Part shown: one piece after another, positions 1,470-33,076 of the stretch | Position numbering within the stretch: the first letter of the stretch is position 1 | How the letters are laid out: each line of letters starts with the position of its first letter | Source of the DNA: Alphaproteobacteria bacterium | GTDB lineage: Bacteria > Pseudomonadota > Alphaproteobacteria > MPNO01 > UBA2964 | Length of the DNA: 64,000 nucleotides | Assembly: GCA_049602055.1 (NCBI GenBank) | Contig: JBMYRG010000013.1 | Span: 12,384 to 76,383 of the forward strand | Direction of reading: 5' to 3' | Made by a program: the position numbers and the translations under genes | Notes under the pieces: generated by a model | What the model saw: only the letters and a program-made list of their open reading frames with translations | Database searches by the model: none | Told to the model about the DNA's origin: nothing

Positions 1470-1569
1470 AAGAAATTCTGATGAATTAGATTGTGCTACA
1501 CTCGCTGGAATCAGGTAAACCTTGCAGCTATAATAAAGCGACACAAGAAACTTCAGGATACAGGCAGCT

Positions 1570-2442: not shown

Positions 2443-2479
2443 ATAGAGCCAAATTACTTTATCGAATAATGAGCCCCCG

Positions 2480-3337: not shown

Positions 3338-3424
3338 TAACGAGACGGGGTTTCGCTATATCGGACTGAGTGATAGTTTTGCGCTAATTAATAACTCTTA
3401 AATAGGCGCAAGGAGACCCGGTTC

Positions 3425-4201: not shown

Positions 4202-4219
4202 AGCTCACCAGGAGGGTAA

Positions 4220-5062: not shown

Positions 5063-5064
5063 GG

Positions 5065-5910: not shown

Positions 5911-6135
5911 AGTTCCCTCACCCGACTTCAACACGCACTGTTCTGCGCAACAATCAAAATACTAACCCGCTTTTAACAGTAAAACCCAGCGCTGCGATCA
6001 ATTTTCCCCTCATTTTTTTCCGTCATTCCGGGTTAACAGCGCGGTTTTGTTCGTCTAAGCTGATATCCGCGCAATATCGTAAAGGCCCTAAAAATTAATT
6101 ATCGGGGCAAATGAAACTAAAGGGAGGTATTTTTT

Positions 6136-7140
6136 ATGTTTAGTAAAATTTTGACTGGTGCAGTCGCCTTGAGTGCGGTTGCAATGGTTGCTGCTGTGCC
6201 AGCACAGGCGCAGAAATTTCCAAAGAAGAATATTACATTCCTGATCGCCTATGGTCCTGGCGGTGGTTTTGACACCATCACCCGTAAGCTCGCACCATAT
6301 TTGAAAAAACATCTTGGCGGTAAGGTCAATATTGTTCCGAAGAACCTGCCCGGTGGACGTGGCAAGAAAGCCGCTGCCTTCCTTGCAAAACGTAAGGCCG
6401 ACGGTTCGCACATCATGATGTTCAACATGCCCGGTCATGCCATGCCGAATATTATCGGTGAAGAAGCCGGTTATGATGTCCGTAAGATGGATTGGTTGGG
6501 TCGTGTCGCCCAGTTCCGTTACATCATTGTCGTCAGTGCCAAAAAGAGTAAATACCAGACGATCCAGGATGTGTTGAAAGCCAAAGATCAGATCAAAATT
6601 CCGATCACAGGCCCCGGCACAACGGGTTATCTCGCCAGCGCCATTCTTTGGAATGCCCTTGGCGTTCAACCAAAATACATCACCGGCTATAAATCAAGCT
6701 CGCGTTATTCGCTTGGTGTTATCCGCGGCGATGGCGATCTGACAATTCTGGCCAAAGGCAGCTTCAAAAAGTATGTCAGCAGCAAAAAGAAAAAGCAGGC
6801 TGCCTTTAAGGACCTGAAGCCAATCCTCGAGATCACCAACGGCAAGTCTGAGTTCGGTGTCCCGACAACTGGTGAAATGGGCCAGAAGGATCTTGCGATC
6901 CTCGGTGGTGATCGAGTTATCGGCACAACACCAGGGACCCCTAAAGCCATCAAGGACCGGTTGGCCAAAGCGGTTTGGGATTCAGTGACTGACCCGGAAT
7001 TCGTAGCCTGGGGTAAAAAGGTCGGTCGTCCGGTTGCACCTTTGAACGCCGCAGACGCGACGAAACTGGTTGGTCAACTTTACTCGTACTACGTCCAATA
7101 CAAGGATGTTCTTGCCGCGAGTAACAAGAAGACCAGATAA
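6136..7140 (+). CDS. tctC: Tripartite tricarboxylate transporter substrate-binding protein (TctC/Bug family)
   Basis: Signal peptide, then 'KFPKKNITFLIAYGPGGGFDTITR...NLPGGRGK...', which is characteristic of the TctC/Bug family. RBS is AAGGGAGG. Length is 334 aa. Confidence 0.85.
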   Translation: MFSKILTGAVALSAVAMVAAVPAQAQKFPKKNITFLIAYGPGGGFDTITRKLAPYLKKHLGGKVNIVPKNLPGGRGKKAAAFLAKRKADGSHIMMFNMPGHAMPNIIGEEAGYDVRKMDWLGRVAQFRYIIVVSAKKSKYQTIQDVLKAKDQIKIPITGPGTTGYLASAILWNALGVQPKYITGYKSSSRYSLGVIRGDGDLTILAKGSFKKYVSSKKKKQAAFKDLKPILEITNGKSEFGVPTTGEMGQKDLAILGGDRVIGTTPGTPKAIKDRLAKAVWDSVTDPEFVAWGKKVGRPVAPLNAADATKLVGQLYSYYVQYKDVLAASNKKTR

Positions 7141-7153
7141 ACTGTTGTTATCA

Positions 7154-7188
7154 ACGGCCGGTGCGCAAGCATCGGCCGTTTCCTTTCC
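7154..7188 (+). terminator. Rho-independent terminator or attenuator between tctC and tctA
   Basis: An 11-bp GC-rich stem (acggccggtgc / gcatcggccgt, with one G-U pair) and a GCAA tetraloop, followed by TTTCCTTTCC. Confidence 0.55.
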
Positions 7189-7286
7189 GCGCACACAACA
7201 AAACAGGCACATCAAGTGTGTGTGTGCGTGCGGACATTTCTGACAGACTTATAAGGCTAAGTTGATCACAGGGGGCAGAGAAATCC

Positions 7287-8798
7287 GTGTTTGATGCATT
7301 GTTTGAAGGAATCGTTAATCTCGGTTCCATCCATTCTCTATTGCTGTTGGCAGCCGGATCAGCGGTTGGATTATTATTTGGCGCCATCCCTGGCCTCGGT
7401 GGCACAACAGCCGTTGCACTCCTCATTCCACTGACCTTCGGCATGGAACCCTGGCAGGCCATCATTTTGATGGGTGGCGTTATGGCAGCCACATCCACTG
7501 GCGGGTCCGTCAGTGCCATTCTTCTAAACACGCCCGGCATTGCCCCGAATGCCGCCACGACTTTTGATGGCTACCCCTTAGCCCAACAGGGCAAAGCTGG
7601 CATGGCCATCGGTGCCGCGGCAACGGCTTCTGCCATGGGTGGCGTCATTGGCGTCATTTCACTAGTGGCAGTGATTCCGATCATGAAAGCGATCGTGCTT
7701 TTGTTCACCCCACCTGAATTTTTTATGCTGGCGATTTTTGGCATGTGCGCCATCGCGGTCTCGTCAGGAGACCGACTACTTCAAGGCCTGATTACCGCGA
7801 TCATTGGATTGATGGTCGGCTTTGTCGGTTATTACGATGTCACCAGTACCGTCCGATTTGACTTTGGTATCCCGCTCCTGGAGGATGGGATTAAATTAGT
7901 TCCGGCCCTGATCGGGCTCTTCGCCATTTCCGAAATGATCAACCTCGCCGTCAAAGGTGGCTCCATTTCTCAGGAAGCGGCAGATGTCGAGATCAGCGGT
8001 GTTTCCTCCGGTATCAAGGAAGTTTTCAAAAACTGGTCAACCACGCTCGTCGGCTCTGGCTATGGCACCTTTATTGGCGCCGTTCCCGGTGTCGGCGGTA
8101 CCGTCGCCGCCTTCCTGAGCTATTCAACCCAGGCCCAGCGCGACCCGACTCCCGATATCGAATACGGCAAGGGTAATATCAAAGGCGTGATCGCTCCCGA
8201 ATCTGCCAATAATGCGAAGGATGGGGGATCGTTGATCCCAACACTTGCCTTTGGTATTCCGGGGAGTGCGGAAACCGCCGTATTCCTCGGCGTTCTCATT
8301 TTACACGGTATCGAACCCGGACAAAAACTCCTGGAAGACCATCAGGATCTGGTCTTCACGCTGGTTGTTGCCCTTACAGTCTCGGCGATTTTCGCGACAA
8401 TTGTTGTTCTCCTATTAGCGAAGTATATGGCGTTGCTGACCCGGATCAGTGTTCATATGCTGATCCCAACCGTGACCGTCGTGGCGCTGGTTGGTGCCTT
8501 CGCCCTTAACACCGAAATCGGCGATGTCGTCATCGCGTTCATCTTTGCCTTTATCGGCTATTTTATGATCCGGTTTAACTATCCGCGGGTTACTTTTACA
8601 ATCGCCATCGTTCTTGGCAGTATCACCGAGCTGAGCTTCCATCAGTCGATGCTCATTTCTGACGATCAAATGTCGATCTTCTTTACGAGAGGGCTATCGC
8701 TCACATTGCTTGCTCTGACGATTTTGAGCCTCGCCTTCCCAACCTTCAGACGAAAGATGAAAGAAAGAAAAGAAGCTAAAATGGAGGCCGGACAATGA
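7287..8798 (+). CDS. tctA: Tripartite tricarboxylate transporter large permease (TctA family)
   Basis: 503 aa polytopic membrane protein. Gly-rich repeated 'PGLGGT / PGVGGT' motifs are typical of TctA. Confidence 0.9.
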   Translation: MFDALFEGIVNLGSIHSLLLLAAGSAVGLLFGAIPGLGGTTAVALLIPLTFGMEPWQAIILMGGVMAATSTGGSVSAILLNTPGIAPNAATTFDGYPLAQQGKAGMAIGAAATASAMGGVIGVISLVAVIPIMKAIVLLFTPPEFFMLAIFGMCAIAVSSGDRLLQGLITAIIGLMVGFVGYYDVTSTVRFDFGIPLLEDGIKLVPALIGLFAISEMINLAVKGGSISQEAADVEISGVSSGIKEVFKNWSTTLVGSGYGTFIGAVPGVGGTVAAFLSYSTQAQRDPTPDIEYGKGNIKGVIAPESANNAKDGGSLIPTLAFGIPGSAETAVFLGVLILHGIEPGQKLLEDHQDLVFTLVVALTVSAIFATIVVLLLAKYMALLTRISVHMLIPTVTVVALVGAFALNTEIGDVVIAFIFAFIGYFMIRFNYPRVTFTIAIVLGSITELSFHQSMLISDDQMSIFFTRGLSLTLLALTILSLAFPTFRRKMKERKEAKMEAGQ

Positions 8799-9298
8799 GA
8801 ATACCCGAGCACAGAAGGCCTTCAGCACTTTATATTCTCATAATTCTAGCTATCGTCGTCCTGTTTATCGCCACAAGCTATCAGTACAAAGTTACTGATC
8901 GGATGTTTCCGTTGATGGTGGGATATTTTGCCATACCACTCTTGATCATGGATTTACTTGCCCTGACCGATAGTAAGGTTGGCGAAAAAATTTCAATTTT
9001 CTTTTCCGCCAAGACGCCGGAAAAGGTCGATGAAGATGCCGATCCAACCGTCCGCACGCTGTCACAGGAACTTAGGATCTTTATGTGGATGGGTGCCCTT
9101 GTCCTGGGTATTTATCTGATTGGCTTTTTGCCCTGCACGCCGGTCTTTGTTTATTGCTGGATGAAATATCGCGGCGGATATTCTGTACGCGAGAGTGCCT
9201 ATCTGGCGATCGGCACCATCGTATTCGTCTACGTCCTGTTCGAAATAATTCTGCAGTACGAATTATATCCGGGCATCTTCCTGTACTGGTACGGCTGA
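8795..9298 (+). CDS. tctB: Tripartite tricarboxylate transporter small permease (TctB-like)
   Basis: 167 aa protein with four TM segments. It overlaps the tctA stop with an ATGA arrangement, which suggests translational coupling. Confidence 0.65.
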   Translation: MRIPEHRRPSALYILIILAIVVLFIATSYQYKVTDRMFPLMVGYFAIPLLIMDLLALTDSKVGEKISIFFSAKTPEKVDEDADPTVRTLSQELRIFMWMGALVLGIYLIGFLPCTPVFVYCWMKYRGGYSVRESAYLAIGTIVFVYVLFEIILQYELYPGIFLYWYG

Positions 9299-9326: not shown

Positions 9327-10871
9327 TTACCCCCAGGGTTCAAGGGCAGCCGCCTGTTTTCCCGCAATTTGGCCCGTCACAAGACACTCTGCGAGATTGC
9401 CGCCAGACATATAGAGATGCCCCCAGGCACTACCCATTTCACCCGCCGCGTAAAGGCGCGGAATGGGATTGTCCTCCACATCGATAATGCGTTGCTGCGC
9501 ATCATGTTCCGGGCCACCCTGGGTATTTGAGACCACCGGCCAGACTTGCCCGGCATAGAATGGCGCACGCTGAATTTTCATCATCGTGCCGGACGGGCGC
9601 CCGAAATCGACATCGTTCTTGGTGGAGCAGAGTTCATTCCATCGGGCCAGTGTCGCTTCAAGCTCACCTGCTTCCATATCGATCATCGCCGCCAACTCAG
9701 CGATTGAATCCGCCTTTTTGATCAGTCCGGACTCGATCTCCTGCATATTGTCGAGGCTCCAGTCATAATGGGCATCGGGATCATTCCGGGTCGGCGCACC
9801 AACCCGATAACGTCGGCGACCAACCTCATCGAAAATCACGTAGGACGGAATACGCGGAAATTCCTGTGTCACGGGATCGAAATGTTCCATCGGCCGGTGC
9901 GACGTATCCTGGGTATAAGGTGGGTTCTCGTTCATATAGCGCTTGCCGAACTTATCGACGACGATCCACGTCATCTGAACAACGGCGGTTTGCTCGCGAC
10001 CGGGAATCCAGTCCGGCAGACGCTTCATACGAATAGCGTAAGGATATTCGGGATGCTCAAACCCGTATGATCCATGATAGTGCCACATATGCCAAAGCCG
10101 GGCGCCAAGCTCCTGCGCCATACGGATACCATCACCAGTGTTTGAATTCGTCGTCGCCGCGAGGACCGGCTTCATTTGCCAGTACTGCCGCTTCATTTCT
10201 TCGTTTGCTTCAAAGCCACCGCAGCAAAGGATCACGGCTTTGCTGGCCTTCACAGTCCGAACACCGCCGGTTGTCTGGATAACGGCGCCCTGAACTTCGC
10301 GTGTGCCATCGGTTTTATAAATCAGTCTCTGAACCGGCGCTTCGAGCCAGATATCGATATCCCGCAACGCGACATTGTCTTCCAGAGTTTTAAACACCCG
10401 AGCCCCGCCGGGAGCGCCCCGGACATGCGGGTAGTGACTATCAGGGTCAAAGTTCGGGATTTCCTCAATCAGCGTTTGGTAGAACGTGTCATATCCTTCA
10501 AACGGGTAGTTCGCGACCTTCTGACGCGGATTTACGATGGCCCCATTGGCTTCTGCCAGCTTCCGCATATAGGCCTCGATATTGGCCATCCCGTCGGCAA
10601 GGGCGCGGTTCACGGATGACGGTGTGCGCCCACCATTCGTCGCTTCGAGATATTTAAAGGCCTGATCTGCGTCATGCGCCGAGCGCATCGCACCGTAAGA
10701 GCAAACAGAAATACCCCCGGGATTGGCCATTTTATCGACCAGCAGAACTTTCGCACCGGCATCAAACGCCTCAATCGCCGCTATGCCGCCGGAATAGCCA
10801 TATCCAACGACAATTACGTCATATTCGGCGTCGAAATTGACAGTCTCGTTGGTAGCCGAATTGTCTGCCAT
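9327..10871 (-). CDS. FAD-dependent dehydrogenase (FAD_binding_2; fumarate reductase / 3-ketosteroid dehydrogenase-like flavoprotein)
   Basis: The N-terminus has the dinucleotide-binding motif 'YDVIVVGYGYSGGIAAIEA...AKVLLVDK'. The C-terminus has 'LYAAGEMGS...GGNLAECLVTG', typical of this flavoprotein family. Length is 514 aa. Confidence 0.8.
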   Translation of the reverse strand: MADNSATNETVNFDAEYDVIVVGYGYSGGIAAIEAFDAGAKVLLVDKMANPGGISVCSYGAMRSAHDADQAFKYLEATNGGRTPSSVNRALADGMANIEAYMRKLAEANGAIVNPRQKVANYPFEGYDTFYQTLIEEIPNFDPDSHYPHVRGAPGGARVFKTLEDNVALRDIDIWLEAPVQRLIYKTDGTREVQGAVIQTTGGVRTVKASKAVILCCGGFEANEEMKRQYWQMKPVLAATTNSNTGDGIRMAQELGARLWHMWHYHGSYGFEHPEYPYAIRMKRLPDWIPGREQTAVVQMTWIVVDKFGKRYMNENPPYTQDTSHRPMEHFDPVTQEFPRIPSYVIFDEVGRRRYRVGAPTRNDPDAHYDWSLDNMQEIESGLIKKADSIAELAAMIDMEAGELEATLARWNELCSTKNDVDFGRPSGTMMKIQRAPFYAGQVWPVVSNTQGGPEHDAQQRIIDVEDNPIPRLYAAGEMGSAWGHLYMSGGNLAECLVTGQIAGKQAAALEPWG

Positions 10872-10972: not shown

Positions 10973-11938
10973 TTATTCAGCAGACGCTAGCTGCGGTCGT
11001 GATTCATTGTAGCGCTGTGTCGAATGCTCACCGGCAGTACAAGGCGGAAACATCGGCGTATCGCCGGGCGTTATACATGTCGGGAGGCATTCAACATGTG
11101 TGTCATGTACGTGATTGAAAAACAGCACTATCGAATGACGATTTTTCTGAGAACGATTGTTCATAACGCGATGGAGGCTCGAATGATACTGACCATTGGT
11201 CCAGCGCAACATGATATCACCGAGATTCACCACAAATGTCCCCGGAATAGGCTCAACCCTTACCCATTCGCCGGAAGCTGTTTCAACTTCGAGCCCGCCC
11301 AGCGAGTCCTGGGACAAGAGTGTGATCCAGCCCCAGTCCGTATGGGCCCCACACCCGAGTTGGTTAAACTCCGTTTCTGCAGGATGAGGCGGATATCGCA
11401 GAATGCGAAGTGGCGATTTTTGTTGCGCGAAGGTGTCATCAAAATGATCGAACGGCATCCCAAGTGACAGAGAGATTAACCGCGACACCTGCAAACCCGC
11501 CTGCCAGACGGCTTCTTTATAGGCTTCAAGTCTTTCGCGAAAACCTGGAAAATCCTCCGGCCAAATATTGGCCTTATAGCCTGGAGTCCCCGGAATATTG
11601 CCCATGGTAAAATTGAAAGACTCTTTGATATCACCGGGCGATTCATTATCCAGACGTTGTGTTTCAGGAGGTTCGTAACCGTTTGAAAAACCTTGTTTTA
11701 TCCACTTTTCTTTCCAGCTATCCGGCTCATCAAAAAACCTGTTGGCCTCCGCAAAAGCGCCATCGATAAGTGTTTGATCAACCCCATGGTTGGAAATATA
11801 GAAAAATCCGGTATTCCGACAGGCTGCTTTAATTTCAGCAGCTATTGCTTCCCGAGCGGTGGGATCACCGGAAAAACTTGGGCCAATATCAATAACCGGA
11901 AGATCGCCTGCCTTCTTGGGCTCGGAGTAGATGATCAT
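10973..11938 (-). CDS. 2OG-Fe(II) oxygenase, isopenicillin-N-synthase-like (DIOX_N plus 2OG-FeII_Oxy)
   Basis: N-terminal 'LPVIDIGP...' box, then the 'HTDWGWITLL...LEV' HxD...H triad region, and the C-terminal RxS motif region. Length is 321 aa. Confidence 0.75.
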   Translation of the reverse strand: MIIYSEPKKAGDLPVIDIGPSFSGDPTAREAIAAEIKAACRNTGFFYISNHGVDQTLIDGAFAEANRFFDEPDSWKEKWIKQGFSNGYEPPETQRLDNESPGDIKESFNFTMGNIPGTPGYKANIWPEDFPGFRERLEAYKEAVWQAGLQVSRLISLSLGMPFDHFDDTFAQQKSPLRILRYPPHPAETEFNQLGCGAHTDWGWITLLSQDSLGGLEVETASGEWVRVEPIPGTFVVNLGDIMLRWTNGQYHSSLHRVMNNRSQKNRHSIVLFFNHVHDTHVECLPTCITPGDTPMFPPCTAGEHSTQRYNESRPQLASAE

Positions 11939-11949
11939 CTGTCAGCTCC

Positions 11950-12963
11950 TCATTCCTGATATGGTATACCCGCCGCCTGCATCGCTTTCATCTGCGACCA
12001 CGTATCCCTGATCCATTGCCCACAGGCTGCATTTTGTTCAAGCAGAGAAAATTTCGCGCCCATGCCGTAATCCGACGTCGCGATCATTTCCGTAATCACA
12101 TATTGCAGCGGACTGGTTTCATGGGTGAGATGATAGCGCAGAATTTTGCGAAAAGCTTCCTTGCAGACATCCAACTTGTAAGCTGACCATGGGGAATGCC
12201 ATTCACCTGGCGCGGGCTTCGTAAAGGGATACATAATCCCGCGGGGCCTTGAACCATCCGGGTTTGTCCCCCAGATATTTCGAGGGTTGTTGGGAATGAC
12301 CGGTCGGAACTGAGCAAAATGGACGGCATCCAACGCCATCCATTCTTCACAAAGATTGCCGGGCTCATAGGGATCCAGAACGATCCGCCCCTCTTCGACA
12401 TCCTCGCGAACATCAGAGACTTCCTGCTGCTCAGGATTGTCAATTTTGAAAATCACATGGCTGTAATCGACGGTAAAATGGAAGGGGATTCCACGCGCCT
12501 GAACCGCCTGCACGATTGGTGTCACGCGCTTGTATTTTTCACTCCAGCAATCGACATGCAGCTCAAAACTGAGGGCGACCCCAACGGAATCGCCTATCTC
12601 CGCCGTTCGGATGTAGGTATCGATAATTTCATCATCCGTCAGCTCATGCCCATCTGCCGCGTAGGTACCAAGCATAATATTAAGCATTTTTACGTCGGCC
12701 CGCGCGGCATCCTGCATTCTTTCAGCGAGCAATTCGTCATTGCGGCCAAGCTGGTGAATATAATTTCCCGTCAGCATCGGAATGTCAGTTTTTTCCGCAG
12801 CAGAAACAGCGTCTTTCAACTGATCCGGTTGCGGCAGCCAGTTGATGTAATCAAAAACCCCGGTATCCCGCACCATCCTGAACCGTTCTAACGGTTCGAC
12901 TACAACATCAGCCTGCAGGATATTGTAGGTACACCCGAGTTGAAAATCGGCAGCCATGATCAT
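11950..12963 (-). CDS. Hypothetical protein, possibly a xylose-isomerase-like TIM-barrel (sugar-phosphate isomerase/epimerase) fold
   Basis: 337 aa ORF with acidic/His-rich segments ('FELHVDCWSE', 'FHFTVDYSHV'), reminiscent of metal-dependent TIM-barrel enzymes. This is weak. Confidence 0.35.
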   Translation of the reverse strand: MIMAADFQLGCTYNILQADVVVEPLERFRMVRDTGVFDYINWLPQPDQLKDAVSAAEKTDIPMLTGNYIHQLGRNDELLAERMQDAARADVKMLNIMLGTYAADGHELTDDEIIDTYIRTAEIGDSVGVALSFELHVDCWSEKYKRVTPIVQAVQARGIPFHFTVDYSHVIFKIDNPEQQEVSDVREDVEEGRIVLDPYEPGNLCEEWMALDAVHFAQFRPVIPNNPRNIWGTNPDGSRPRGIMYPFTKPAPGEWHSPWSAYKLDVCKEAFRKILRYHLTHETSPLQYVITEMIATSDYGMGAKFSLLEQNAACGQWIRDTWSQMKAMQAAGIPYQE

Positions 12964-13109: not shown

Positions 13110-14588
13110 ATGAGTGCGGCGTCAGGAAGTAACATTGCAGGTCAAATTGCCTATGAAGATTTGCGCGAATGGTTGGTCTTAGCCGACCGTCTTGGCGAGG
13201 TAGAATATGTAAAGGGTGCCAACTGGCAGGAAGATATCGGCCTTGCTGCAGAAGCTGTACTACGTGAGGAGAATGGCCCCTGCGTTGTATTTGAAGATGT
13301 CGAAGGATGCCCCAAGGGTTTCCGCATGCTAATGAACATGTTCGCCGGTACGCGGCGAAATATGACGCTGGGTTTTCCGGAACATCTGACCAAATGGGAA
13401 CTTTCCAACGCTTATCGTGAAAACTATCTCATCGATCCGAAAGTCATCAAACATGAGATCGTCGATGATGGCCCCGTTTTTGAGAACATCCTGACGGGCG
13501 ACGATATTGACGTCACCAAATTTCCGGCCCCCGTCTGGCATGAGAATGATGGCGGACGCTATATCGGTACCGGCACCTACAGCGTAACACGCGACCCCGA
13601 AGAAGGCTGGCTCAATGCCGGCGCTTATCGGGCGCAGGTTCATGGCCCGAAAGAAGTCGGTTTCCTGACGGCACGTGGACATCACGGCTATATCCACCGC
13701 GAGAAATACAAGGCGCAGGGCAAAAAGATGCCGGTCTGCATGGTTCTAGGCGGTGATCCGCTAGCCTTCTATTTCGGTGGTACCGAAGCACCCTACGGTG
13801 CCTTTGAGCTCGATATCGTCGGGGGCCTGCGCGGCAAACCCTTGCAGCTTGTTGAAGGTAAAGTCACTGGCCTGCCCTTCCCCGCCAATGCCGAAATCGT
13901 GCTGGAAGGTTATGTCGATCCGCAGGAAACCATTATCGAAGGGCCTTTTGGCGAATGGACCGGCCATTATGCTGGCGGCAAGGAACCGCGGACGGTTCTC
14001 CGCATTGAAGCCATTTATCACCGAAACGACCCCATCCTGCTCGGCGTACCGCCGATGGGCCAAGGCCCGGATGAACTGGCGCGCTATCGTGCTGTGATGC
14101 GCTCTGCGATGCTTAAACAAAATATTATTGATGCCGGTGTACCGGACATCCAGCAGGTCTGGTGCCACGAAACCGGCGGCTCCCGGATGCTCCATGGGGT
14201 GTCGATTAAACAACGTTATCCCGGTCATTCACGTCAGGCTGGTCAAATCGCGGCGCAGTGTCGTGCAGCCGCCTATGCCTCAAAATATGTCATCGTGACG
14301 GATGAAGATGTCGATGTGACACGACTCGACCAACTTATCTGGGCTATGATGGTCAGGACCGACCCCAAGCGGTCAATCGACTTTATCAGCGGCGCCTGGG
14401 ATTCCCCCGCCGACCCCATGCTGACACCAGAGCAACGGGCCGTTGGCGATATGACCCATTCCGTCGCCATCATTGATGCGTGCCGTCCGTTCGAATGGAT
14501 GGACCAGTTTCCGATGTCAAACGCCCCAAGCCCGGAAGTGGCACGAAAGGCAGAAGAAAAGTTTGGCTATCTGATGAAGAACCGCTAG
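13110..14588 (+). CDS. UbiD-family (prenylated-FMN-dependent) decarboxylase, paralog A
   Basis: 492 aa protein with the UbiD hallmark layout: an N-terminal 'LREWL..A..LGE' box, then '..DGGRYIGTG..VTRDPE..W.N.G.YR.QV', and the conserved E(x)nE cofactor region. About 50% identical to the ORF at 24469..25962. Confidence 0.85.
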   Translation: MSAASGSNIAGQIAYEDLREWLVLADRLGEVEYVKGANWQEDIGLAAEAVLREENGPCVVFEDVEGCPKGFRMLMNMFAGTRRNMTLGFPEHLTKWELSNAYRENYLIDPKVIKHEIVDDGPVFENILTGDDIDVTKFPAPVWHENDGGRYIGTGTYSVTRDPEEGWLNAGAYRAQVHGPKEVGFLTARGHHGYIHREKYKAQGKKMPVCMVLGGDPLAFYFGGTEAPYGAFELDIVGGLRGKPLQLVEGKVTGLPFPANAEIVLEGYVDPQETIIEGPFGEWTGHYAGGKEPRTVLRIEAIYHRNDPILLGVPPMGQGPDELARYRAVMRSAMLKQNIIDAGVPDIQQVWCHETGGSRMLHGVSIKQRYPGHSRQAGQIAAQCRAAAYASKYVIVTDEDVDVTRLDQLIWAMMVRTDPKRSIDFISGAWDSPADPMLTPEQRAVGDMTHSVAIIDACRPFEWMDQFPMSNAPSPEVARKAEEKFGYLMKNR

Positions 14589-14606
14589 GTACCGGATTAG
14601 GGTAGT

Positions 14607-16157
14607 ATGGTCGACACGCTAGAACCGACCGGAATACTGCCTGACGATTACCTTTCCTTAGCGGATCAAATTGCGCAAAACGCCTGTAATCAGGGGGATA
14701 CACCTGCATTCATCTCTGTCGATACTGGTGAAACTATAGGCTGGGAAGAGCTTTCCTTATGGACCGCTCGTCTTGCGCACTTTCTGCACAACAAAGATAT
14801 TCACAGCAATCACAAAATCGTCGTCCTCGGCGAGAACTCGCTTGAGCACTTAATTCTCTACTACGGTATCCAGGCCTATGGCGCGACCTACTGCACCATT
14901 AATACCGAAATAAACCAGAACCATCTCGTCGAGATGCTTGCCCGGATCGAACCAACACTGATCCTATGGCACCAGGACCTCAATCGGCATGCCATTGGCA
15001 ACGGGACAGTCGGAGAATGGGTTTCCTTTAACGACAGAACCCTCGATACGGGGCTATTTGCCAATCTATCTCGACTCGATCCCGAAAACCCGCCCAACAC
15101 CGGGAATGATAAAGAGGATCGTTGCGTCATCTGTTTTACGTCGGGAACATCAGCGCAGCCCAAAGGTGTGTTGCATAGCTTCAGTAACTATCAAGCCATC
15201 GCGCAACACCAGCTCGACCGCTGGTCTTTAACAAGCGACGATCGAATTCTGGAGTTTCGGTCTATTAGCTGGGCCTCAGCGCATATGATTTCGCTTAATC
15301 CCGCGATGCTTTCGGGGGCGACTCTTCTATTCGCAAAAAACTTTTCGCGCTCACGCTTTGTCAGCTGGATCGAGGCTCACCAACCCACCATCATTGTCGC
15401 GGTCCCGACGGTCGTGAATATGTTGCTGGAACAACCGATTCAAAACGGCAAAGAGGTGTTTGCCAGTGTGCGGTTTGTATCCTGTAGTACCGCGCCTCTC
15501 ATGCCCGATGCTCACCGGCGGTTTGAAGATATCTACGGAGTAGAACTGGTCCAGCTTTATGGCATGAGTGAAGGCGGCATCGTCGCGGCAAATGCCCCTG
15601 GCACTCGCGTCATCGGCAGTGTCGGGACTGCAGGAATGTATCAAAACATCACGATCCGTGATGATGCAGGCAATCCGTTACCGCCCGGCGACATCGGTGA
15701 TATCGAGACCGTCAGCGCGCAACACGCCCAGGCCTATCTCCATGCCGGTGGCGACATAGAGGTCATAAGAGGGAAACCCCTGAAAACCGGCGATCTCGGT
15801 TATCTGGACGAAGACGGTTTTCTACGCATCACCGGCCGCGCAAAGGATGTCGTCATCCGGGGTGGCGTCAATATATCACCGCTCGAGATCGACGCCTTAA
15901 TATCTCGACACCCCAATGTCCTTGAGGCTGTAACGTTTGGAATTCCCGACGCGGTCTACGGCGAAAATCTCGTAAGTTGGGTAACGGTAACAACCGATTC
16001 AAATCTCAGCGCCGATGACCTGACAGTCTATTGCATCGCAAACCTTCCGGAAGCAAAGCGACCGAAAACAATTACAATTGTCGGAGAAATCCCAAAGAAC
16101 AGTCGGGGAAAAATTGACCGCAATGCCGCCAAAGAGCTTTGGCAGGCTGCGCAGTAA
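14607..16157 (+). CDS. AMP-dependent synthetase/ligase (acyl- or aryl-CoA ligase, ANL superfamily)
   Basis: AMP-binding P-loop 'FTSGTSAQPKGV', 'YGMSEGG', 'GDLGYLDEDGFLRITGRAKD', and a C-terminal 'PKNSRGKIDR'. Length is 516 aa. Confidence 0.85.
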   Translation: MVDTLEPTGILPDDYLSLADQIAQNACNQGDTPAFISVDTGETIGWEELSLWTARLAHFLHNKDIHSNHKIVVLGENSLEHLILYYGIQAYGATYCTINTEINQNHLVEMLARIEPTLILWHQDLNRHAIGNGTVGEWVSFNDRTLDTGLFANLSRLDPENPPNTGNDKEDRCVICFTSGTSAQPKGVLHSFSNYQAIAQHQLDRWSLTSDDRILEFRSISWASAHMISLNPAMLSGATLLFAKNFSRSRFVSWIEAHQPTIIVAVPTVVNMLLEQPIQNGKEVFASVRFVSCSTAPLMPDAHRRFEDIYGVELVQLYGMSEGGIVAANAPGTRVIGSVGTAGMYQNITIRDDAGNPLPPGDIGDIETVSAQHAQAYLHAGGDIEVIRGKPLKTGDLGYLDEDGFLRITGRAKDVVIRGGVNISPLEIDALISRHPNVLEAVTFGIPDAVYGENLVSWVTVTTDSNLSADDLTVYCIANLPEAKRPKTITIVGEIPKNSRGKIDRNAAKELWQAAQ

Positions 16158-16168
16158 GGAACACAAAA

Positions 16169-16951
16169 ATGTCTGACAACAATACCTACGCTGAATACGA
16201 CAACTTCATGGGACGCTGGAGCCGTCAAGTGGCGAGCCAATTCCTTGATTGGATTCAGCCCGGGCAGAATTTAAGTTGGCTCGACGTCGGTTGCGGTGCC
16301 GGAATGTTGGCGCAAACTGTCGCCAGAAATTGCGCGCCCTCGATTGTCACTGGAGCCGACCCTCTGGAAAAATCCATTACTGCCGCAAAACAACACCCGG
16401 ATAACAAGGGTATTCGATTTGAGGTTGGCGATGCTCAAGATCTGCCGTTCGAGGATTCCACGTTCGATGCGGTCGTTTCGGGCCTCATGATCAAATTCGT
16501 ACCCAACAAAGTAAAAGCAATTGGCGAGATGAAACGCGTGGCCCGTCCCGGTAGCGTCATTGCCCTCTATGACTGGGATATGGATAGCAACATGAACACG
16601 ACGCGGCACTTCTGGGGAGCTGTTGCAGACATCATCCCAGAGCGTATGGAGGATCGGGCCACCAACCGAACACCAATGACCGAAATCGATTCAATTGCCC
16701 AAATATTTGAAGCGGCAAGCGTAACGAAAGTTCAGCAAAACACCATTTCCTTTACGACCCAGTTCCGGGATCTCGAAGATTACTGGCAACCAATTACCAA
16801 AAACTCACAAAATGTCGGCCGATTTTACCAAACGATGACGGAAGATCAGCGTAATGCCGTCCGCGAGCGGCTAAAACAAACCCTGCCCTTCGCCAAAGAC
16901 GGCTCTATTTCCTTTGAAAGCCGCGCTGTTGCGGTAAAAGGTCTCGCCTAG
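16169..16951 (+). CDS. Class I SAM-dependent methyltransferase
   Basis: Motif 'LDVGCGAGMLAQ'. The start is set at MSDNNTY (16169), which has a GGAA RBS. The upstream ATG at 16139 would overlap the ligase gene. Confidence 0.75.
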   Translation: MSDNNTYAEYDNFMGRWSRQVASQFLDWIQPGQNLSWLDVGCGAGMLAQTVARNCAPSIVTGADPLEKSITAAKQHPDNKGIRFEVGDAQDLPFEDSTFDAVVSGLMIKFVPNKVKAIGEMKRVARPGSVIALYDWDMDSNMNTTRHFWGAVADIIPERMEDRATNRTPMTEIDSIAQIFEAASVTKVQQNTISFTTQFRDLEDYWQPITKNSQNVGRFYQTMTEDQRNAVRERLKQTLPFAKDGSISFESRAVAVKGLA

Positions 16952-18754
16952 CTAACGCCGTGCGTCTGCCAGTGCCTGCGCATCGTCATAAGACGTTTGT
17001 ACATTGAGGACTGCCTGACGCTTTTCAATATCCACCGCCTTCAAGGCCCGTTCGAGGGCACCTGGAAGGTCTTCCGCGTTATCGACCCGTTCACCATAGC
17101 CGCCATTGGCTTCAACAACCTTTTCGAAATCCGGGTTGGGTTCAAGGGCCGTCAACGGCGAACGATTCAGTCGAGAAGCAGCACCGTCCGGGTGAAGTCC
17201 GAGTGTCGATTTCCGGACGGAGCCCCACATACGGTTGTTAAGAATAATAGTGCAGATCGGTAATTCCATCGAAGCACCAACGAAATGTGCCGGCGTTGGG
17301 TTGCCAAACATATAGGAACCGTCGCCCGCTACGTTAAAGACGCGCCGAGAACGATCACCGAGCTGTAAGCCAAGTGCTGCTCCATTCCCCCAACCAAGGC
17401 CACCGGCAGGGCTGGTGCCGAAGACAGTTCCAGGTTTCCGGGAACCCAGGAAGCCGACCGGTAATTGTGACTCGCTCACAAGTGCATCGTCTTCGTTCAT
17501 AACCTGGCCGATACAATGGGCGACCCATGGATACTCCATCGGACCGCCGACAGATTGACGTTCCAACAGCGCTTTTTGCGTTTCCGCCAATGCTGCCTTT
17601 TGTGCTGCGACTTCCTTTCGGGTTGCGCCAATGCGATCTGCGTTTTCGGTCATTGCCGCCGATAGCGCCCGCAAAGTAGATGCCGGATCACCGGCCAATG
17701 TCAGATCACTCCGGAACCCCCGTATCGGATAGTTGGTGAATAGAGGATCAACCCCGGCCTGGATCACTTGCGCTTCAGGGGAAATTTTATGCAGGCTCGG
17801 AATCCACGGCACATCGGATTCCAGCGTTAAAATAACATCGGCTGTCGCAAGCCGTTCGGCAGGCTCAAACCCGACATGCATCGGATGGTCAGTTGGCAAG
17901 TTTACGTAGCGCGGGCGGTAGCAAATGACGGGAATGGCAAAACGTTCTGCAAGTGCTTCCAGCGATGCAACATCTTCTGGATGTTGTCCAAAAGAAGAAG
18001 AAATAATCAGCGGATTCTTTGCTTTACTCAGCATATCCGCTGCCTGATCAATCGAGTTCGGATGTGGTACACCCGCCCGTGAAGCATTTCTCACCGTTGG
18101 GCTATCAAAAGTGAAGTCGCCAGGGTTTTCCGCCAGCATCTCGCGGGGTAGGGTCAAATAAACAGGTCCGCGCGGTTCCGACATCGCAACGGTCAGCGCC
18201 CGGTCAACCACGGTTTCAAGCTGTTCAAGATTACGCAGTTCATAATCCCATTTTACTAACTCGCGGACCATGCCTGCCTGATCAAACATTTCCTGGGCCC
18301 AATGAATGTAAATACTGCGGGCGCCAGGCAACCCTTCTTCTGTAACGGGTGTCCTACCCGCAGAGAACAACATGGGAATACGCTCACGTGCTGCATTCAT
18401 GATGCCACAAACACCGTTCGCGGTACCGACGGTTACATGCAACATCACAGCCTGCGGACGTCCGGTGGCCAGGTAATAACCATGGGCCATGGCAACCGCG
18501 ACATTTTCATGCGGCACTGTGACAGGAGTCGGCGCTTTCGCTTCACCGAGCTGTGCCTTGGACAGCGCTTCAATCACAGATGCAAAATCTGTTCCCGCAT
18601 TACCAAAAAGATAGTCGACACCTCGGTCGGCAAGTAGTGTGAGATAGGCTTCGGCAGTGGTATCCGCCTTAATCGTTTGTTTTCCCAATGTGGGTCTCCC
18701 CGAATCCGGTTTTGGTTTAAGACCAGTATCGCCCACGATGCAGTGATTGCACAC
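16952..18754 (-). CDS. Thiamine-pyrophosphate-dependent enzyme (acetolactate synthase / benzoylformate decarboxylase-like)
   Basis: N-terminal TPP Pyr domain 'YLFGNAGTDF', and a C-terminal TPP-binding motif 'GDGSYMFGNPTPAH...N'. The ORF is 600 aa. The true start is probably an alternative start codon downstream of 18754. Confidence 0.75.
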   Translation of the reverse strand: MCNHCIVGDTGLKPKPDSGRPTLGKQTIKADTTAEAYLTLLADRGVDYLFGNAGTDFASVIEALSKAQLGEAKAPTPVTVPHENVAVAMAHGYYLATGRPQAVMLHVTVGTANGVCGIMNAARERIPMLFSAGRTPVTEEGLPGARSIYIHWAQEMFDQAGMVRELVKWDYELRNLEQLETVVDRALTVAMSEPRGPVYLTLPREMLAENPGDFTFDSPTVRNASRAGVPHPNSIDQAADMLSKAKNPLIISSSFGQHPEDVASLEALAERFAIPVICYRPRYVNLPTDHPMHVGFEPAERLATADVILTLESDVPWIPSLHKISPEAQVIQAGVDPLFTNYPIRGFRSDLTLAGDPASTLRALSAAMTENADRIGATRKEVAAQKAALAETQKALLERQSVGGPMEYPWVAHCIGQVMNEDDALVSESQLPVGFLGSRKPGTVFGTSPAGGLGWGNGAALGLQLGDRSRRVFNVAGDGSYMFGNPTPAHFVGASMELPICTIILNNRMWGSVRKSTLGLHPDGAASRLNRSPLTALEPNPDFEKVVEANGGYGERVDNAEDLPGALERALKAVDIEKRQAVLNVQTSYDDAQALADARR

Positions 18755-19916
18755 CCCTGCATTCGAAATGGAACGCTCGCCGATGGCTCTCAGGATTTCT
18801 TTGTTTTACGGCGCGATATTCGCGGTTATTGGCATCCTGATGCCATTCTGGCCAGTTTGGCTACAATCCCGTGGAATTACAGCGACAGAAATCGGTTTAA
18901 TACTGGCTGTCGCCACCTGGAGCCGAGCTATTATCAATCCACTTCTGGCGCAACGGGCTGATCGATATGGTCGTCCCGACTTGATGATCCTCTTCCTTGG
19001 CTGGGGCGCTTTCCTGACCCACATTCTGTTCTTTTTCTCGGACGGGTTTTGGAGCCTGTTTGCCATCAGCGTCATTTCGTCAATTTTGCTCTTTGCGCTG
19101 ATGCCCATGGCGGATGCGGTCACCATGCTCAAGGTACGCGAAGGCAGTATCGATTACGGCAAAGTACGGCTATGGGGGTCTTTGACCTTTATTGCCGCCG
19201 CTCTGGGGGGCGGCATTCTCCTCCGTGGACAGCCCGCAGACTACATTCTTTGGTTGGTCATTGGTCTGCTGGTCTTGACTGTCGCAAGTTGTCACCTGAT
19301 CCCGCGGGCAGAAACCCCTGGCACCAAGAATTTCCTCGAACCTTTGCTCAATATTCTTCGCAACAAGCGACTGATTATCTTCATGATGTCAGCGAGCTTA
19401 ATCCAGGCGAGCCATGCAGTTTATTACGGTTTTTCTACCTTGCATTGGCGAGCCAACGGTCTCGATGAAATTACCATTGGTGCGCTCTGGGCTGAAGGAG
19501 TAATAGCCGAGATCATATTATTCGCTATTGCCGGAAAATATATCGACCGAATTGGGCCAGTGGTCTTCCTGACGATTGGCGGCATCGCCGGTCTAATCCG
19601 CTGGTCGGTGCTCGGCATGACAACCGACTTGCCCGGACTGGTGGCGGTGCAGGGGCTTCATGCCTTTACCTTCGGCGCTACTCATTTGGCCGCTCTTTAC
19701 TACATTGCCAAAGCCGTCCCGGCGGGTTTTGCCGCAACGGCACAAAGTCTCTATTCCAGCTTTGCCGTCGGCACGACAATGGCTTTTGCCATGCTGGCCT
19801 CGGGCTGGCTTTACGAGTTGTATGACGGGGCCGCATTCTTCGCGATGGCAGGCATGTCTGTTGCCGGAATACTGCTTCTAATCCCGGTCCTCTTAATCGC
19901 TAAAGAATCTACCTGA
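18747..19916 (+). CDS. MFS transporter, HcaT-like (3-phenylpropionate / aromatic acid:H+ symporter family)
   Basis: 12-TM MFS protein. The segment 'YGKVRLWGSLTFIAAALGG' closely matches the E. coli HcaT 'YGKVRLWGSVAFVIGSALTG' box. The likely start is the MALRISLF Met at 18783. Confidence 0.7.
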   Translation: MHTPAFEMERSPMALRISLFYGAIFAVIGILMPFWPVWLQSRGITATEIGLILAVATWSRAIINPLLAQRADRYGRPDLMILFLGWGAFLTHILFFFSDGFWSLFAISVISSILLFALMPMADAVTMLKVREGSIDYGKVRLWGSLTFIAAALGGGILLRGQPADYILWLVIGLLVLTVASCHLIPRAETPGTKNFLEPLLNILRNKRLIIFMMSASLIQASHAVYYGFSTLHWRANGLDEITIGALWAEGVIAEIILFAIAGKYIDRIGPVVFLTIGGIAGLIRWSVLGMTTDLPGLVAVQGLHAFTFGATHLAALYYIAKAVPAGFAATAQSLYSSFAVGTTMAFAMLASGWLYELYDGAAFFAMAGMSVAGILLLIPVLLIAKEST

Positions 19917-19919
19917 CCG

Positions 19920-20621
19920 TTATTCGAGCTCGATACGAATTCCAACAGTTGCCGACAAAGTCTGGGTGCCACGCGAAACCGGCACGGCCTTATCACTTCG
20001 CAGAGCTTCTGCCGCCATGATACGCGGCCTCGGATGATGTATTCCGCGCTCCTGGATTTGTAAAATCTTACCGAGCTCAGAGCCCGCCGCCTCTGCGTAA
20101 AGTGTCGCTTTTCGCATGGCATCTTTGACCGCCTTGCGGCGCGCTTGGTCGAGAAGTTTTTCTGGCTCCGCGACTGAAAACTGGACACCGTTCACCCGGT
20201 TTGACCCGGCAGAGACAACAGCATCGAGCAAACGACCCAATTTCGTTAAATCACGTACCGTCACCGTCACCTGATTGGCGGCCTGATACCCCGCAATCTT
20301 GCGCTGTTTGTTACGTTCATAACGTTCATAGAAGGGCGAGACGCTAAAATTGCTGGTGCGGATATCTTTATCGTCGATGCCAGATTTTGAAAGGAGCCGA
20401 AACAAGGAACTCATTGCCTTGTTATTCGCCGATAAAGCCTCGCGTGCCGTATCGGCCCGCGTTGTGACACCAGCATTTATGCTGGCAATATCGGGAACCG
20501 CAATTACCGTTCCCTTGCCTTCAACAGCGATAAAACGTGTTTTATCATTATCAGCAACGGCGGTACCAGCTGCCAAAAAAATCAACGCCCCTGTGAGACC
20601 TGCAAGCACCCTGTTCGTCAT
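19920..20621 (-). CDS. SIMPL-domain (DUF541) periplasmic protein, BP26/Omp28-like
   Basis: Signal peptide, then the conserved C-terminal region 'LLDQARRKAVKDAMRKATLYAEAAGSELGKILQIQE'. Length is 233 aa. Confidence 0.7.
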   Translation of the reverse strand: MTNRVLAGLTGALIFLAAGTAVADNDKTRFIAVEGKGTVIAVPDIASINAGVTTRADTAREALSANNKAMSSLFRLLSKSGIDDKDIRTSNFSVSPFYERYERNKQRKIAGYQAANQVTVTVRDLTKLGRLLDAVVSAGSNRVNGVQFSVAEPEKLLDQARRKAVKDAMRKATLYAEAAGSELGKILQIQERGIHHPRPRIMAAEALRSDKAVPVSRGTQTLSATVGIRIELE

Positions 20622-24466: not shown

Positions 24467-24468
24467 AC

Positions 24469-25962
24469 CTATTTTGTTGGCGGCTGATTGGTATTGAGCA
24501 GCCAACCCCATTTCTCCTTAGCGCGAGCATAGGTTTCTTTGTCTGGTGTATTGACCTTGGGATACCGATCCATCCAGTGGAACGGCTTGCAGGCATTGAT
24601 AATCGCACGACTGTTGGTCGTATCGCCAATTTCCTTGCGATCAGGATGGATCGACGGATCGAGTCCCGTGGACCAGCCTCGGTTGATGATATCGATATCC
24701 GTTGCCGGATCTGCCCGGAAACAAAGCGCCCACATGACGTCTTCCAGATTCGACGCATCGATATCGTCATCAACGACGACAACGAATTTCCCGGCATACG
24801 CCCCGAGACGACACTGCGAGGCAATCTGGCCCGCCTGTGTCGCATGTCCCGGATAGCGCTGTTTAATAGACACGGCAGTAAACATGCGCCCGCCGCCACA
24901 TTCATGGCACCAGGCAACCTGAACATCAGGAACGCCAACCGCTTCGATCTGCTCCTTGAGAAGCGCCGAGCGCACCACGGCCCGATAACGCGACTGTTCC
25001 TCTGGCGGACGTTGCGGCGGACAACCGAGCATGATCGGATCATTACGATGATAGATAGCCTTAATATCCAGCGTCGGTCCATTATGTTCAGGATTCCCGT
25101 AATACCCTGTCCATTCGCCGAATGGTCCTTCAGAGTGGAGTTTGTCCGGATAGCAAAAGCCTTCGAGGACAATCTCGGCATTTGCGGGAAACGGCAGCCC
25201 AGTATGTTTGCCGATGACGCATTCAACCGGACGGCCACGATAGGCGCCCATGATGTCAAATTCGCAAACGCCATACGGAATTTCCGATGACGACATCAGA
25301 AAGCTAAGCGGATCAACACCGACGACAACGCAGACCGGCATGGGCAGGTTCTTGGCCATGTATTTTTGACGATGCAGCCGACCATGTTTCCCGGGGGAAA
25401 TATAAAACCCGACGGTTTTTTCATCATGCACCATCACGCGGTAGGTACCGACATTGATCCAGTTCTCTTCAGGGTCACGGGTGACATTAAAAGACCCGGT
25501 TCCGATATAACGCCCGCCATCCCCTTCATGCCAAAGCGGTGTCGGTAGAGAAAGCACGTCTACGTCGTCACCTTCCATGATATTTTCCATCACCGGGCCG
25601 GTTTCAACAGTTTTGTAAGGTAGTGGTCTTTGAACGACCTCCTGATAGGCCTTGTTAAAGGCGACACTTAGCTCAAACTTGGTAAGGTCCGGCGGAAAGC
25701 CCAACGTAATATTCTGGCGGCGACCACCAAAGAAGTTGGTAAAGACCCGGTGCCCTTTGGGATAGCCTGGAATTTCATCAAACAAAGCGCAGGGCGCCGT
25801 TTCGCTATGCAGCAGTAATTCCGCCGCCATGCCGATATCTTCTTCCCAGGTCGCTCCTTGAACACGGCGCAGCTCGCCGAGCTTATCGACCTCTTCGATA
25901 TATTCCCGAAGGTCATTAAAGGTGACGTGGTGTTTGAGATTACTGGCTTGCGATCCGTCCAT
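24469..25962 (-). CDS. UbiD-family decarboxylase, paralog B
   Basis: 497 aa protein, collinear with the ORF at 13110..14588 ('LREYIEEVDKLGELRRVQGATWEEDIGMAAELL', 'DGGRYIGTGSFNVTRDPEENWINVGTYRVMVH'). Confidence 0.85.
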   Translation of the reverse strand: MDGSQASNLKHHVTFNDLREYIEEVDKLGELRRVQGATWEEDIGMAAELLLHSETAPCALFDEIPGYPKGHRVFTNFFGGRRQNITLGFPPDLTKFELSVAFNKAYQEVVQRPLPYKTVETGPVMENIMEGDDVDVLSLPTPLWHEGDGGRYIGTGSFNVTRDPEENWINVGTYRVMVHDEKTVGFYISPGKHGRLHRQKYMAKNLPMPVCVVVGVDPLSFLMSSSEIPYGVCEFDIMGAYRGRPVECVIGKHTGLPFPANAEIVLEGFCYPDKLHSEGPFGEWTGYYGNPEHNGPTLDIKAIYHRNDPIMLGCPPQRPPEEQSRYRAVVRSALLKEQIEAVGVPDVQVAWCHECGGGRMFTAVSIKQRYPGHATQAGQIASQCRLGAYAGKFVVVVDDDIDASNLEDVMWALCFRADPATDIDIINRGWSTGLDPSIHPDRKEIGDTTNSRAIINACKPFHWMDRYPKVNTPDKETYARAKEKWGWLLNTNQPPTK

Positions 25963-26107
25963 CGGTGGAGTCTCCTAAATCATATTGATACGCCAAACTA
26001 AGACGATGGGCCCGATCTGTAAATCCAGCTTGCACCGATAGGCTGGCGTGACGAGAGGTTTCGTGCGATGAGATAAAATACCTCAAAGAAATCTAGCGGG
26101 TTCTCCT

Positions 26108-32970: not shown

Positions 32971-33043
32971 CTTTGTTCCTTAGTTGGCGAAGACGTTTCG
33001 CTGCTAGCGAGACGAATTGTGTTTATTTATTAGGTGAAGAATA

Positions 33044-33072: not shown

Positions 33073-33076
33073 CTGT

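Follow-up and report, generated by a model that had tools for sequence, protein, structure and literature searches.

The locus examined here lies in a 64-kb window (the whole stretch analyzed, to which all positions refer) of contig JBMYRG010000013.1 from an alphaproteobacterial assembly (GCA_049602055.1). It centers on a gene for a UbiD-family enzyme, UbiD1 (13110..14588, + strand, 492 aa), followed after 18 nt, from stop to start, by a gene for an ANL-superfamily acyl/aryl-coenzyme A (CoA) ligase (14607..16157, +, 516 aa). A class I S-adenosylmethionine (SAM)-dependent methyltransferase gene comes next on the same strand (listed at 16139-16951; Methyltransf_11, 2.4e-22, with Methyltransf_25/31 also matching), and beyond it lie genes for a thiamine diphosphate (TPP)-dependent enzyme of family PRK08327 (16952..18754, -; all three TPP domains) and an HcaT-like major facilitator superfamily (MFS) transporter (18747..19916, +; MFS_1_like, 2.4e-66). 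All five genes stand where the original prediction had placed them, in agreement with the open reading frame (ORF) listing of the window, and their Pfam E-values are far beyond chance. The short gaps it described between the co-directional UbiD, ligase, and methyltransferase genes are also present, the second being ~12 nt when the methyltransferase is read from its likelier start (16170..16951); as listed, the ligase and methyltransferase ORFs overlap by 19 nt, and the TPP and MFS genes by 8 nt. A GGAGGA ribosome-binding site stands 7 nt 5' of the UbiD1 ATG. Promoter and terminator scans over 9-21 kb gave the same counts as shuffled sequence, and an Rfam scan over 9-27 kb gave zero matches. 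UbiD1 is 92-94% identical to proteins of marine metagenome-assembled genomes labelled Rhodospirillaceae or Alphaproteobacteria, and the region gave no megablast match to E. coli genomes. The probable functional core of the locus is the two-gene unit of UbiD1 and the ligase.

UbiD1 has the full UbiD_N/UbiD/UbiD_C architecture (PF20695, PF01977 at 9.6e-65, and PF20696), and its motifs NAGAYR and EGPFGEWTG are intact in the alignment. The catalytic Arg of N-x-G-x-Y-R and the Glu pair of E-G-P-F-G-E correspond to R173, E277, and E282 of Aspergillus niger Fdc1. Among the curated equivalog models of NCBIfam, UbiD1 falls below the cut-off on every one, including canonical UbiD (NF008175, 145.4 bits against 788), VdcC (NF041204, 251.5 against 650), and the best-scoring model, phenylphosphate carboxylase subunit beta (PpcB, 282 against 469). 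Its top match in the PDB is 7PDA (334 bits, 37% identity), which is PhdA, the phenazine-1-carboxylate decarboxylase of Mycolicibacterium fortuitum (PMC10850782). PhdA carries the same N-x-G-x-Y-R and E-G-P-F-G-E motifs, and its NCBIfam score profile is the same as that of UbiD1 and of a second paralogue in the window, UbiD2. As PhdA itself, a decarboxylase, scores 275.6 bits on the PpcB model, a match to that model does not mark a carboxylase. Judged from these scores and motifs, UbiD1, UbiD2, and PhdA belong to one broad, ring-acting, PhdA/PpcB/VdcC-like subgroup.

The other solved UbiD structures listed score far lower against UbiD1: HudA 173 bits, the VdcC type 165, AroY 130-142, E. coli UbiD 135-136, Fdc1 92-124, and phthaloyl-CoA decarboxylase (PCD; 8OZ5/8PMK) 58.6-58.8, the weakest among the 40 UbiD structures listed. 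The separation from canonical ubiquinone UbiD, on which the original prediction depended, is therefore clear from both the NF008175 score and the structure ranking. UbiD1 belongs to none of the clades it had named as possible homes for the protein: Fdc1 and AroY lie well behind PhdA, PCD is far away, and VdcC fails on its model score and on the lack of any UbiX-like or small-subunit gene (VdcB/VdcD-like companions) adjoining UbiD1. HmfF was considered as an identity for UbiD1 and dropped, as its structures (6H6V/6H6X) reach only 135-138 bits. The xanthine-8-carboxylate decarboxylase of Cupriavidus, published with a tree that includes the M. fortuitum UbiD, is described by its authors as not closely related to other UbiD members (PMC12391406). 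At E <= 1e-30, UbiD1 has >5,400 relatives among database proteins, all with generic annotation only, and 259 stretches were confirmed among GTDB species-representative genomes; the alphaproteobacterial UbiD clade that the locus brings into view is large and uncharacterised.

The ligase matches AMP-binding (5.5e-64) and AMP-binding_C (1.4e-11) in Pfam, and the segments T178-S-G-T...P185-K-G and K502-x-D504-R505 (TSGT..PKG and GKIDR) are invariant in the ligase alignment (A1), as expected of the ANL superfamily. Its closest PDB relatives are MatB, a malonyl-CoA synthetase (175-180 bits), and oxalyl-CoA synthetase (164 bits), followed by feruloyl-CoA synthetase (154), FadD13 (141), 4-coumarate-CoA ligase (4CL, ~108), benzoate-CoA ligase (~100), and 4-chlorobenzoate-CoA ligase (~85). 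The label "aryl-CoA-ligase-like" that had been given to it does not hold, given the ~100 bits of benzoate-CoA ligase against 180 for MatB and 164 for oxalyl-CoA synthetase. Nor do its model scores place the ligase among fatty-acyl-CoA synthetases, an outcome that would have spoken against an aromatic route: its best NCBIfam model, PRK06187 "long-chain-fatty-acid--CoA ligase," gives 308.5 bits against a cut-off of 476, no curated fatty-acyl-CoA synthetase model is passed, and all 109 matching models listed remain under their cut-offs. On sequence alone, the protein qualifies neither as an aryl-CoA ligase nor as a genuine fatty-acyl-CoA synthetase.

The evidence that these two genes belong together comes from comparative genomics, in which ORFs in high-GC loci were chosen by a GC3 criterion. 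In the close marine relatives (L001-L015), the UbiD, TPP enzyme, MFS, flavin adenine dinucleotide (FAD)-dependent oxidoreductase, and TctCBA genes are syntenic; L001-L011 alone have the ligase, and fewer still the methyltransferase. In L012-L015, UbiD is the immediate neighbor of the TPP gene. Identities in these relatives are 85-94% for UbiD, 58-77% for the ligase, and 57-78% for the methyltransferase. UbiD1 orthologues at 72-76% identity (L016-L080, Xanthobacteraceae and relatives) have an entirely different context, with neither UbiX nor a ligase nearby. The surroundings are themselves conserved among these loci, with a gene for an FrsA-like alpha/beta hydrolase in divergent orientation, an NMT1/THI5-like protein that lacks a signal peptide and is encoded downstream, TctC receptors, BamA, and at times a Mo-hydroxylase or GMC oxidoreductase; NCBIfam gave nothing specific for the NMT1-like and FrsA-like proteins.

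Ligase orthologues at 49-59% identity are still directly 3' of a UbiD gene in L081, L083, L085, L086, and L087, with a 4-nt overlap of the two genes in L087. In most of these loci, a BenA/AntA-like Rieske oxygenase alpha subunit scoring 425-450 bits on the BenA model lies divergently upstream; overall, such alpha subunits hold this position in L081, L082, L083, L086, L087, L112, L123, L129, and L131. A metagenome scan with the ligase alignment added 80 loci, giving, together with L081-L088, 85 distinct ligase loci. We counted a locus as assessable when each of its flanks was at least 1.5 kb long or when a nearby UbiD match was found, the second condition biasing the counts somewhat upward: a UbiD-family gene lay within 3 kb in 17/17 assessable loci at ligase identities of at least 55%, in 5/17 at 45-55%, and in 15/26 below 45%. 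Ligases with identities as low as 38% still show the adjacency. Among the most distant loci, mainly from soil, gene order and orientation differ, and the ligase often stands between two divergent UbiD paralogues. UbiX is present as well in six soil loci, of which two have a family III CoA-transferase; in L163, the order is TctC, family III CoA-transferase, UbiX, UbiD, ligase, UbiD', a gene resembling enoyl-CoA hydratase, and a ligase of the PaaK type. UbiD-family genes are few per genome, and such a recurrence in varied habitats and arrangements is not easily explained by descent alone; the soil loci also speak against a restriction of the adjacency to a single lineage of recent divergence. 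The pattern argues, at the level of gene neighborhoods, that the ligase clade works with UbiD enzymes; the clade has evolved jointly with the genes for UbiD and UbiX.

Two very different UbiD paralogues (~25-27% identical) occur at many ligase loci, among them L081 (4773-7785), L143, L156, L162, and L163. In the divergent paralogue, UbiDb, the E-G-P-F-G-E region is altered with an insertion, and Q or S replaces the motif Asn; in L086 and L112, the only UbiD paired with the ligase and a Rieske oxygenase is UbiDb. The paired divergent UbiD paralogues of the soil versions may form a heteromeric enzyme.

The UbiX flavin prenyltransferase needed to make prenylated flavin mononucleotide (prFMN) had been reported as missing from the window, and our searches agree: tblastn with two queries (E. 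coli UbiX and the UbiX of L163) found none in the 64 kb, and a Pfam scan of the small ORFs of the window found no Flavoprotein domain. Both queries recover UbiX in the six soil loci, which serve as a positive control. Nor was a UbiX detected less than 10 kb from UbiD in any of 80 related loci. The prFMN cofactor would thus have to be supplied by a ubiX in another part of the genome.

The remaining three genes of the predicted five-gene module could not be tied to this core to the same degree, and the module as a whole is not established. For the methyltransferase, the ATG at 16170, which is preceded by AAGGAA and lies 12 nt after the ligase stop, is more likely the start than the listed TTG at 16139. 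The protein passes no curated NCBIfam family and is found only in the closest marine relatives; it was added recently and is specific to this lineage. The TPP enzyme passes NF006203 (PRK08327; 681.3 bits against a cut-off of 456), a family lacking an assigned reaction, and its nearest structures are benzoylformate decarboxylase and benzaldehyde lyase (~105 bits). Its listed start is likely too long, with an internal TTG as the alternative, and its gene is syntenic in L001-L015, L083, L085, and L105. The start of the MFS gene as listed is probably also too long, with 18768 or 18783 in its place. As the original prediction noted, this transporter carries an HcaT-like box, DYGKVRLWGS, identical in E. 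coli K-12 HcaT, of the 3-phenylpropionate transporter family; it belongs to the same MFS_1_like family and scores 258.7 bits on the HcaT model NF008346 against a cut-off of 259. It differs from E. coli HcaT in that overall identity is 33% and no hca dioxygenase operon adjoins it. The TPP enzyme and HcaT-like MFS are syntenic with the locus only inside the marine lineage. We treat both, along with UbiD2 and the EamA transporters described below, as neighbors that may or may not take part.

Upstream of UbiD1 and divergent from it are three minus-strand genes, encoding a xylose-isomerase-like TIM-barrel protein (11950..12963), a 2-oxoglutarate (2OG)/Fe(II) oxygenase (10973..11938; DIOX_N and 2OG-FeII_Oxy in Pfam, with PDB matches), and a soluble FAD-dependent oxidoreductase of the fumarate reductase/KstD/urocanate reductase family (9327..10871; FAD_binding_2, 6.9e-39, with PDB matches). 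The FAD oxidoreductase gene stands directly beside UbiD1 in L007, L008, L012, L013, and L083. The 2OG oxygenase varies in its presence, and the BenA-like Rieske oxygenase holds its slot in the distant versions. The TIM-barrel gene occurs, among L001-L015, only in L002, L010, and L011, and it is also present in L100; the protein of the window has no Pfam match of its own and no meaningful PDB match (E = 0.38), some of its homologues are named "xylose isomerase" or carry PF01261, and one distant homologue stands in an unrelated context. Further upstream, a TctC-TctA-TctB tripartite tricarboxylate-type uptake system (6136..9298, +; Pfam TctC, TctA at 1.3e-129, and TctB) is, by its family, a candidate carboxylate importer; it is syntenic in L001-L014, L089, L091, L094, and L105.

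Downstream, a SIMPL/DUF541 gene (19920..20621, -; Pfam SIMPL, 4.1e-59) is a backbone neighbor; at many of the distant loci, it follows either the ligase or the MFS gene. It is followed by genes for a 446-aa polytopic membrane protein (20817-22157, +) and a 428-aa protein with an N-terminal hydrophobic segment (22242-23528, +), neither with a Pfam family, which are syntenic with the locus in the marine relatives and in L082, L083, L087, and L105. UbiD2 (24469..25962, -, 497 aa), which the original prediction had not mentioned, is 52% identical to UbiD1, matches the same three Pfam UbiD domains, and has the motifs NVGTYR and EGPFGEWTG. It scores 371 bits against PhdA (40% identity), with the structures ranking as for UbiD1, and 303 bits on the PpcB model. 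The UbiD adjoining UbiX in soil locus L163 is 59% identical to UbiD2 and 54% to UbiD1. Next to a glutathione S-transferase (GST) gene (27007-27711), UbiD2 lies between two EamA transporter genes, an arrangement kept in L001, L004, L006, L009, L012, and L013. Nine EamA (drug/metabolite transporter) paralogues, likewise missing from the earlier account, occupy 16 kb (23525-39248), six of them in tandem on the minus strand (27708-32970), where the array coincides with an AT-skew of +0.24 to +0.26. Arrays of 3-4 EamA genes recur 5-8 kb downstream of ligase orthologues in L082, L087, L088, and L125, and the gene immediately preceding the ligase is EamA-like in L110-L121, L126, and L130.

Elsewhere in the window, positions 4-5934 encode a cluster of 2OG-dependent dioxygenases, three of them full TauD/TfdA-family proteins and one a PhyH protein, together with a PcaD-like hydrolase and a second SAM methyltransferase. 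NCBIfam gave nothing specific for the TauD, PhyH, and hydrolase genes of the window; the same set stands beside ligase orthologues in L082, L083, and L086. A further TauD/TfdA-family gene at the window end (63260-63886, 208 aa) covers only model positions 95-267. Two queuosine biosynthesis genes, QueF (41545-42009) and QueC (61305-62030), lie ~19 kb apart, and a DUF123 protein gene (37110-37748) overlaps a YgjP-like metallopeptidase gene (37618-38376) as listed.

From the gene content, family placement, motifs, and adjacency described above, we infer an aromatic substrate, an order of reactions, and a catabolic role. The general reading, in which UbiD1 is coupled to the ligase and their substrate is an aromatic acid, is on balance the probable one. 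An aromatic or heteroaromatic carboxylic acid is supported as the substrate by the PhdA-like placement of UbiD1 and by the oxygenase beside the conserved UbiD-ligase unit. The aromatic activation and decarboxylation route proposed originally thus stands in two of its parts, with conserved adjacency in distant loci strongly supporting UbiD-ligase coupling and the BenA-like Rieske genes upstream supporting an aromatic substrate, and falls in its third, the likeness of the ligase to aryl-CoA ligases. For the specific order, we tentatively favor decarboxylation of the free acid first, a possibility held with clearly less confidence than the coupling itself. In such a pathway, TctCBA or the HcaT-like MFS would import an aromatic or heteroaromatic carboxylate, plausibly a di-acid; UbiD1 would decarboxylate it as the free acid; and the ligase would turn the remaining or product carboxylate into a CoA thioester for further breakdown. 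The adjacent oxygenase (2OG in this window, BenA-like Rieske in distant versions) and the FAD oxidoreductase may modify the ring or side chain.

This order is favored because (i) the UbiD1 orthologues at 72-76% identity lack a ligase, (ii) the near characterized relatives use free acids, and (iii) PCD is the most distant. The best-scoring characterized relatives, PhdA, HudA, VdcC, and AroY, all act on free acids. PhdA resembles the window proteins as the top solved relative of both UbiD1 and UbiD2 and in its catalytic motifs and NCBIfam profile. It differs in that identity is 37-40%, the window has no adjacent phdB (UbiX) or phdC (maturase; PMC13040415), PhdA is not reported with a CoA ligase, and host and habitat are not the same. 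The logic of decarboxylation before activation would be that of the furan pathway, in which 2,5-furandicarboxylate (FDCA) is converted to furoate and then to furoyl-CoA. That pathway (HmfF/HmfG and HmfD; PMC8091172 for its distribution) shares with our locus a UbiD di-acid decarboxylation followed by CoA ligation and a TctC-type receptor nearby; unlike it, the window has no furoyl-CoA dehydrogenase genes and no adjacent HmfG (UbiX), and HmfF is far from UbiD1 in score. Homarine/trigonelline-type catabolism was also considered and dropped, the published homABCDER pathway having no UbiD (PMC13236597).

Several observations weigh against a free-acid-first aromatic pathway, or against a shared pathway altogether. 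The identity to PhdA is just 37-40%, and the substrate is not readable from the sequence. Malonyl- and oxalyl-CoA synthetases and generic "fatty-acid" models, rather than benzoate-CoA ligases, are the closest matches of the ligase. L012-L015 keep UbiD, TPP enzyme, and MFS and have neither ligase nor methyltransferase, and much of the marine synteny may come from common descent rather than function. UbiX is present neither in the window nor within 10 kb in any marine locus, and some alphaproteobacteria have no ubiD for ubiquinone synthesis (PMC10626278). The many EamA and Bcr-type exporters nearby could fit detoxification over catabolism. Lastly, a family III CoA-transferase stands beside UbiX and UbiD in soil versions, as in the phthaloyl-CoA system, which favors CoA-ester substrates there.

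This last point bears on the one serious rival, in which the ligase acts first on an aromatic dicarboxylate and UbiD1, as an independent UbiD lineage, then converts the carboxy-aryl-CoA to aryl-CoA. The phthaloyl-CoA and isophthalyl-CoA decarboxylases of anaerobes (PCD and IPCL-IPCD) set the precedent, pairing a ligase or CoA-transferase with UbiD and UbiX (PMC9516798), and L152, L162, and L163 hold between them a family III CoA-transferase, UbiX, UbiD, ligase, and a second UbiD. The deep ligase-UbiD linkage would also suit this route, as would the fact that the nearest structures of the ligase bind the dicarboxylates malonate and oxalate. However, none of the solved UbiDs listed is further from UbiD1 than PCD (59 bits), the 72-76% UbiD1 orthologues and L012-L015 have no ligase nearby, UbiD comes first in the gene order, and the window showed no genes of the benzoyl-CoA pathway. 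Unlike the PCD system, the locus has an aerobic, oxygenase-rich setting with no UbiX nearby, and unlike IPCL, a PaaK-type ligase of ~50 kDa, its ligase is a 516-aa MatB/FadD13-like ANL enzyme. We regard CoA activation before decarboxylation as unlikely for this locus, while placing it next after the free-acid order.

Less likely than either of these is the reverse chemistry, in which UbiD1 would carboxylate an electron-rich arene (of the phenol, catechol, pyrrole, or indole type) and the ATP-dependent ligase would trap the acid as its CoA ester, pulling the unfavorable C-H carboxylation. Such a carboxylate-then-ligate scheme is that of the anaerobic gene clusters for phenylphosphate, benzene, and naphthalene carboxylases. 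Like these clusters, which have adjacent CoA ligases, the locus has PpcB as its best NCBIfam model (282 bits for UbiD1, 303 for UbiD2), and relatives have paired UbiDs beside the ligase; the divergent pairs flanking the ligase in L081, L143, L156, L162, and L163 recall heteromeric carboxylases. The carboxylase-then-ligase gene order of known clusters (PMC12016498; PMC5852087) is also the order seen here. Both scores nevertheless stay under the PpcB cut-off of 469 and are equaled by the decarboxylase PhdA (275.6), no phenylphosphate synthase or small carboxylase subunit genes were seen, and the setting and host are aerobic and rich in oxygenases, all of which make carboxylation by UbiD1 doubtful at best.

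Slightly more doubtful again is a role in detoxification and export, in which UbiD1 and UbiD2 would inactivate toxic aromatic acids resembling phenazine-1-carboxylate, the EamA, Bcr/CflA, and MFS proteins would export substrates or products, and the ligase and methyltransferase would modify them further. The nearest characterized enzyme, PhdA, breaks down an antibiotic (PMC10850782), UbiD2 lies within the group of nine EamA paralogues beside the GST, EamA arrays recur near ligase orthologues, and a Bcr/CflA efflux MFS directly follows the ligase in L083. Yet the EamA and MFS proteins may equally import, TctCBA is an uptake system, the many oxygenases and the PcaD-like hydrolase nearby suggest catabolism, and an ATP-consuming CoA ligase would be unusual for plain detoxification. 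That the genes share no pathway at all, being unrelated tenants of a flexible catabolic island whose adjacency was inherited by descent, is the least probable of these explanations: it would account for the absence of ligase and methyltransferase from L012-L015, the variable 2OG oxygenase and TIM-barrel genes, the far lower conservation of ligase and methyltransferase than of UbiD, and the chance-level promoter and terminator counts, but descent alone is insufficient for an adjacency that persists to 38% ligase identity in varied orientations and habitats and together with UbiX.

The UbiD1-ligase unit is a real, uncharacterised pair of a (de)carboxylase, probably of aromatic acids, and a CoA ligase, and the conserved UbiD-ligase pairing is a well-supported and useful new lead. 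Our search of the literature on this clade or on an aerobic UbiD-ligase module found only anaerobic and furan-pathway precedents for UbiD with CoA-activating enzymes; since such combinations are already known from these systems, the pairing is a lead rather than a surprise. It is improbable, though more far-reaching, that aerobic marine and soil bacteria use a PhdA/PpcB-like UbiD with a dedicated ATP-dependent ligase either to carboxylate and trap an arene or as an independently evolved aryl-dicarboxyl-CoA decarboxylase system. If true, either would extend to oxic oceans and soils a chemistry that has until now been associated with anaerobes. UbiD enzymes are of interest as catalysts for reversible (de)carboxylation, and the substrate classes known for them are few; here, a ligase clade accompanies the genes for UbiD and UbiX in oxic habitats, both marine and soil. 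Identification of the substrate would add a step to the turnover of aromatic carbon in the ocean and could also yield a natural decarboxylase-ligase pair for biocatalysis.

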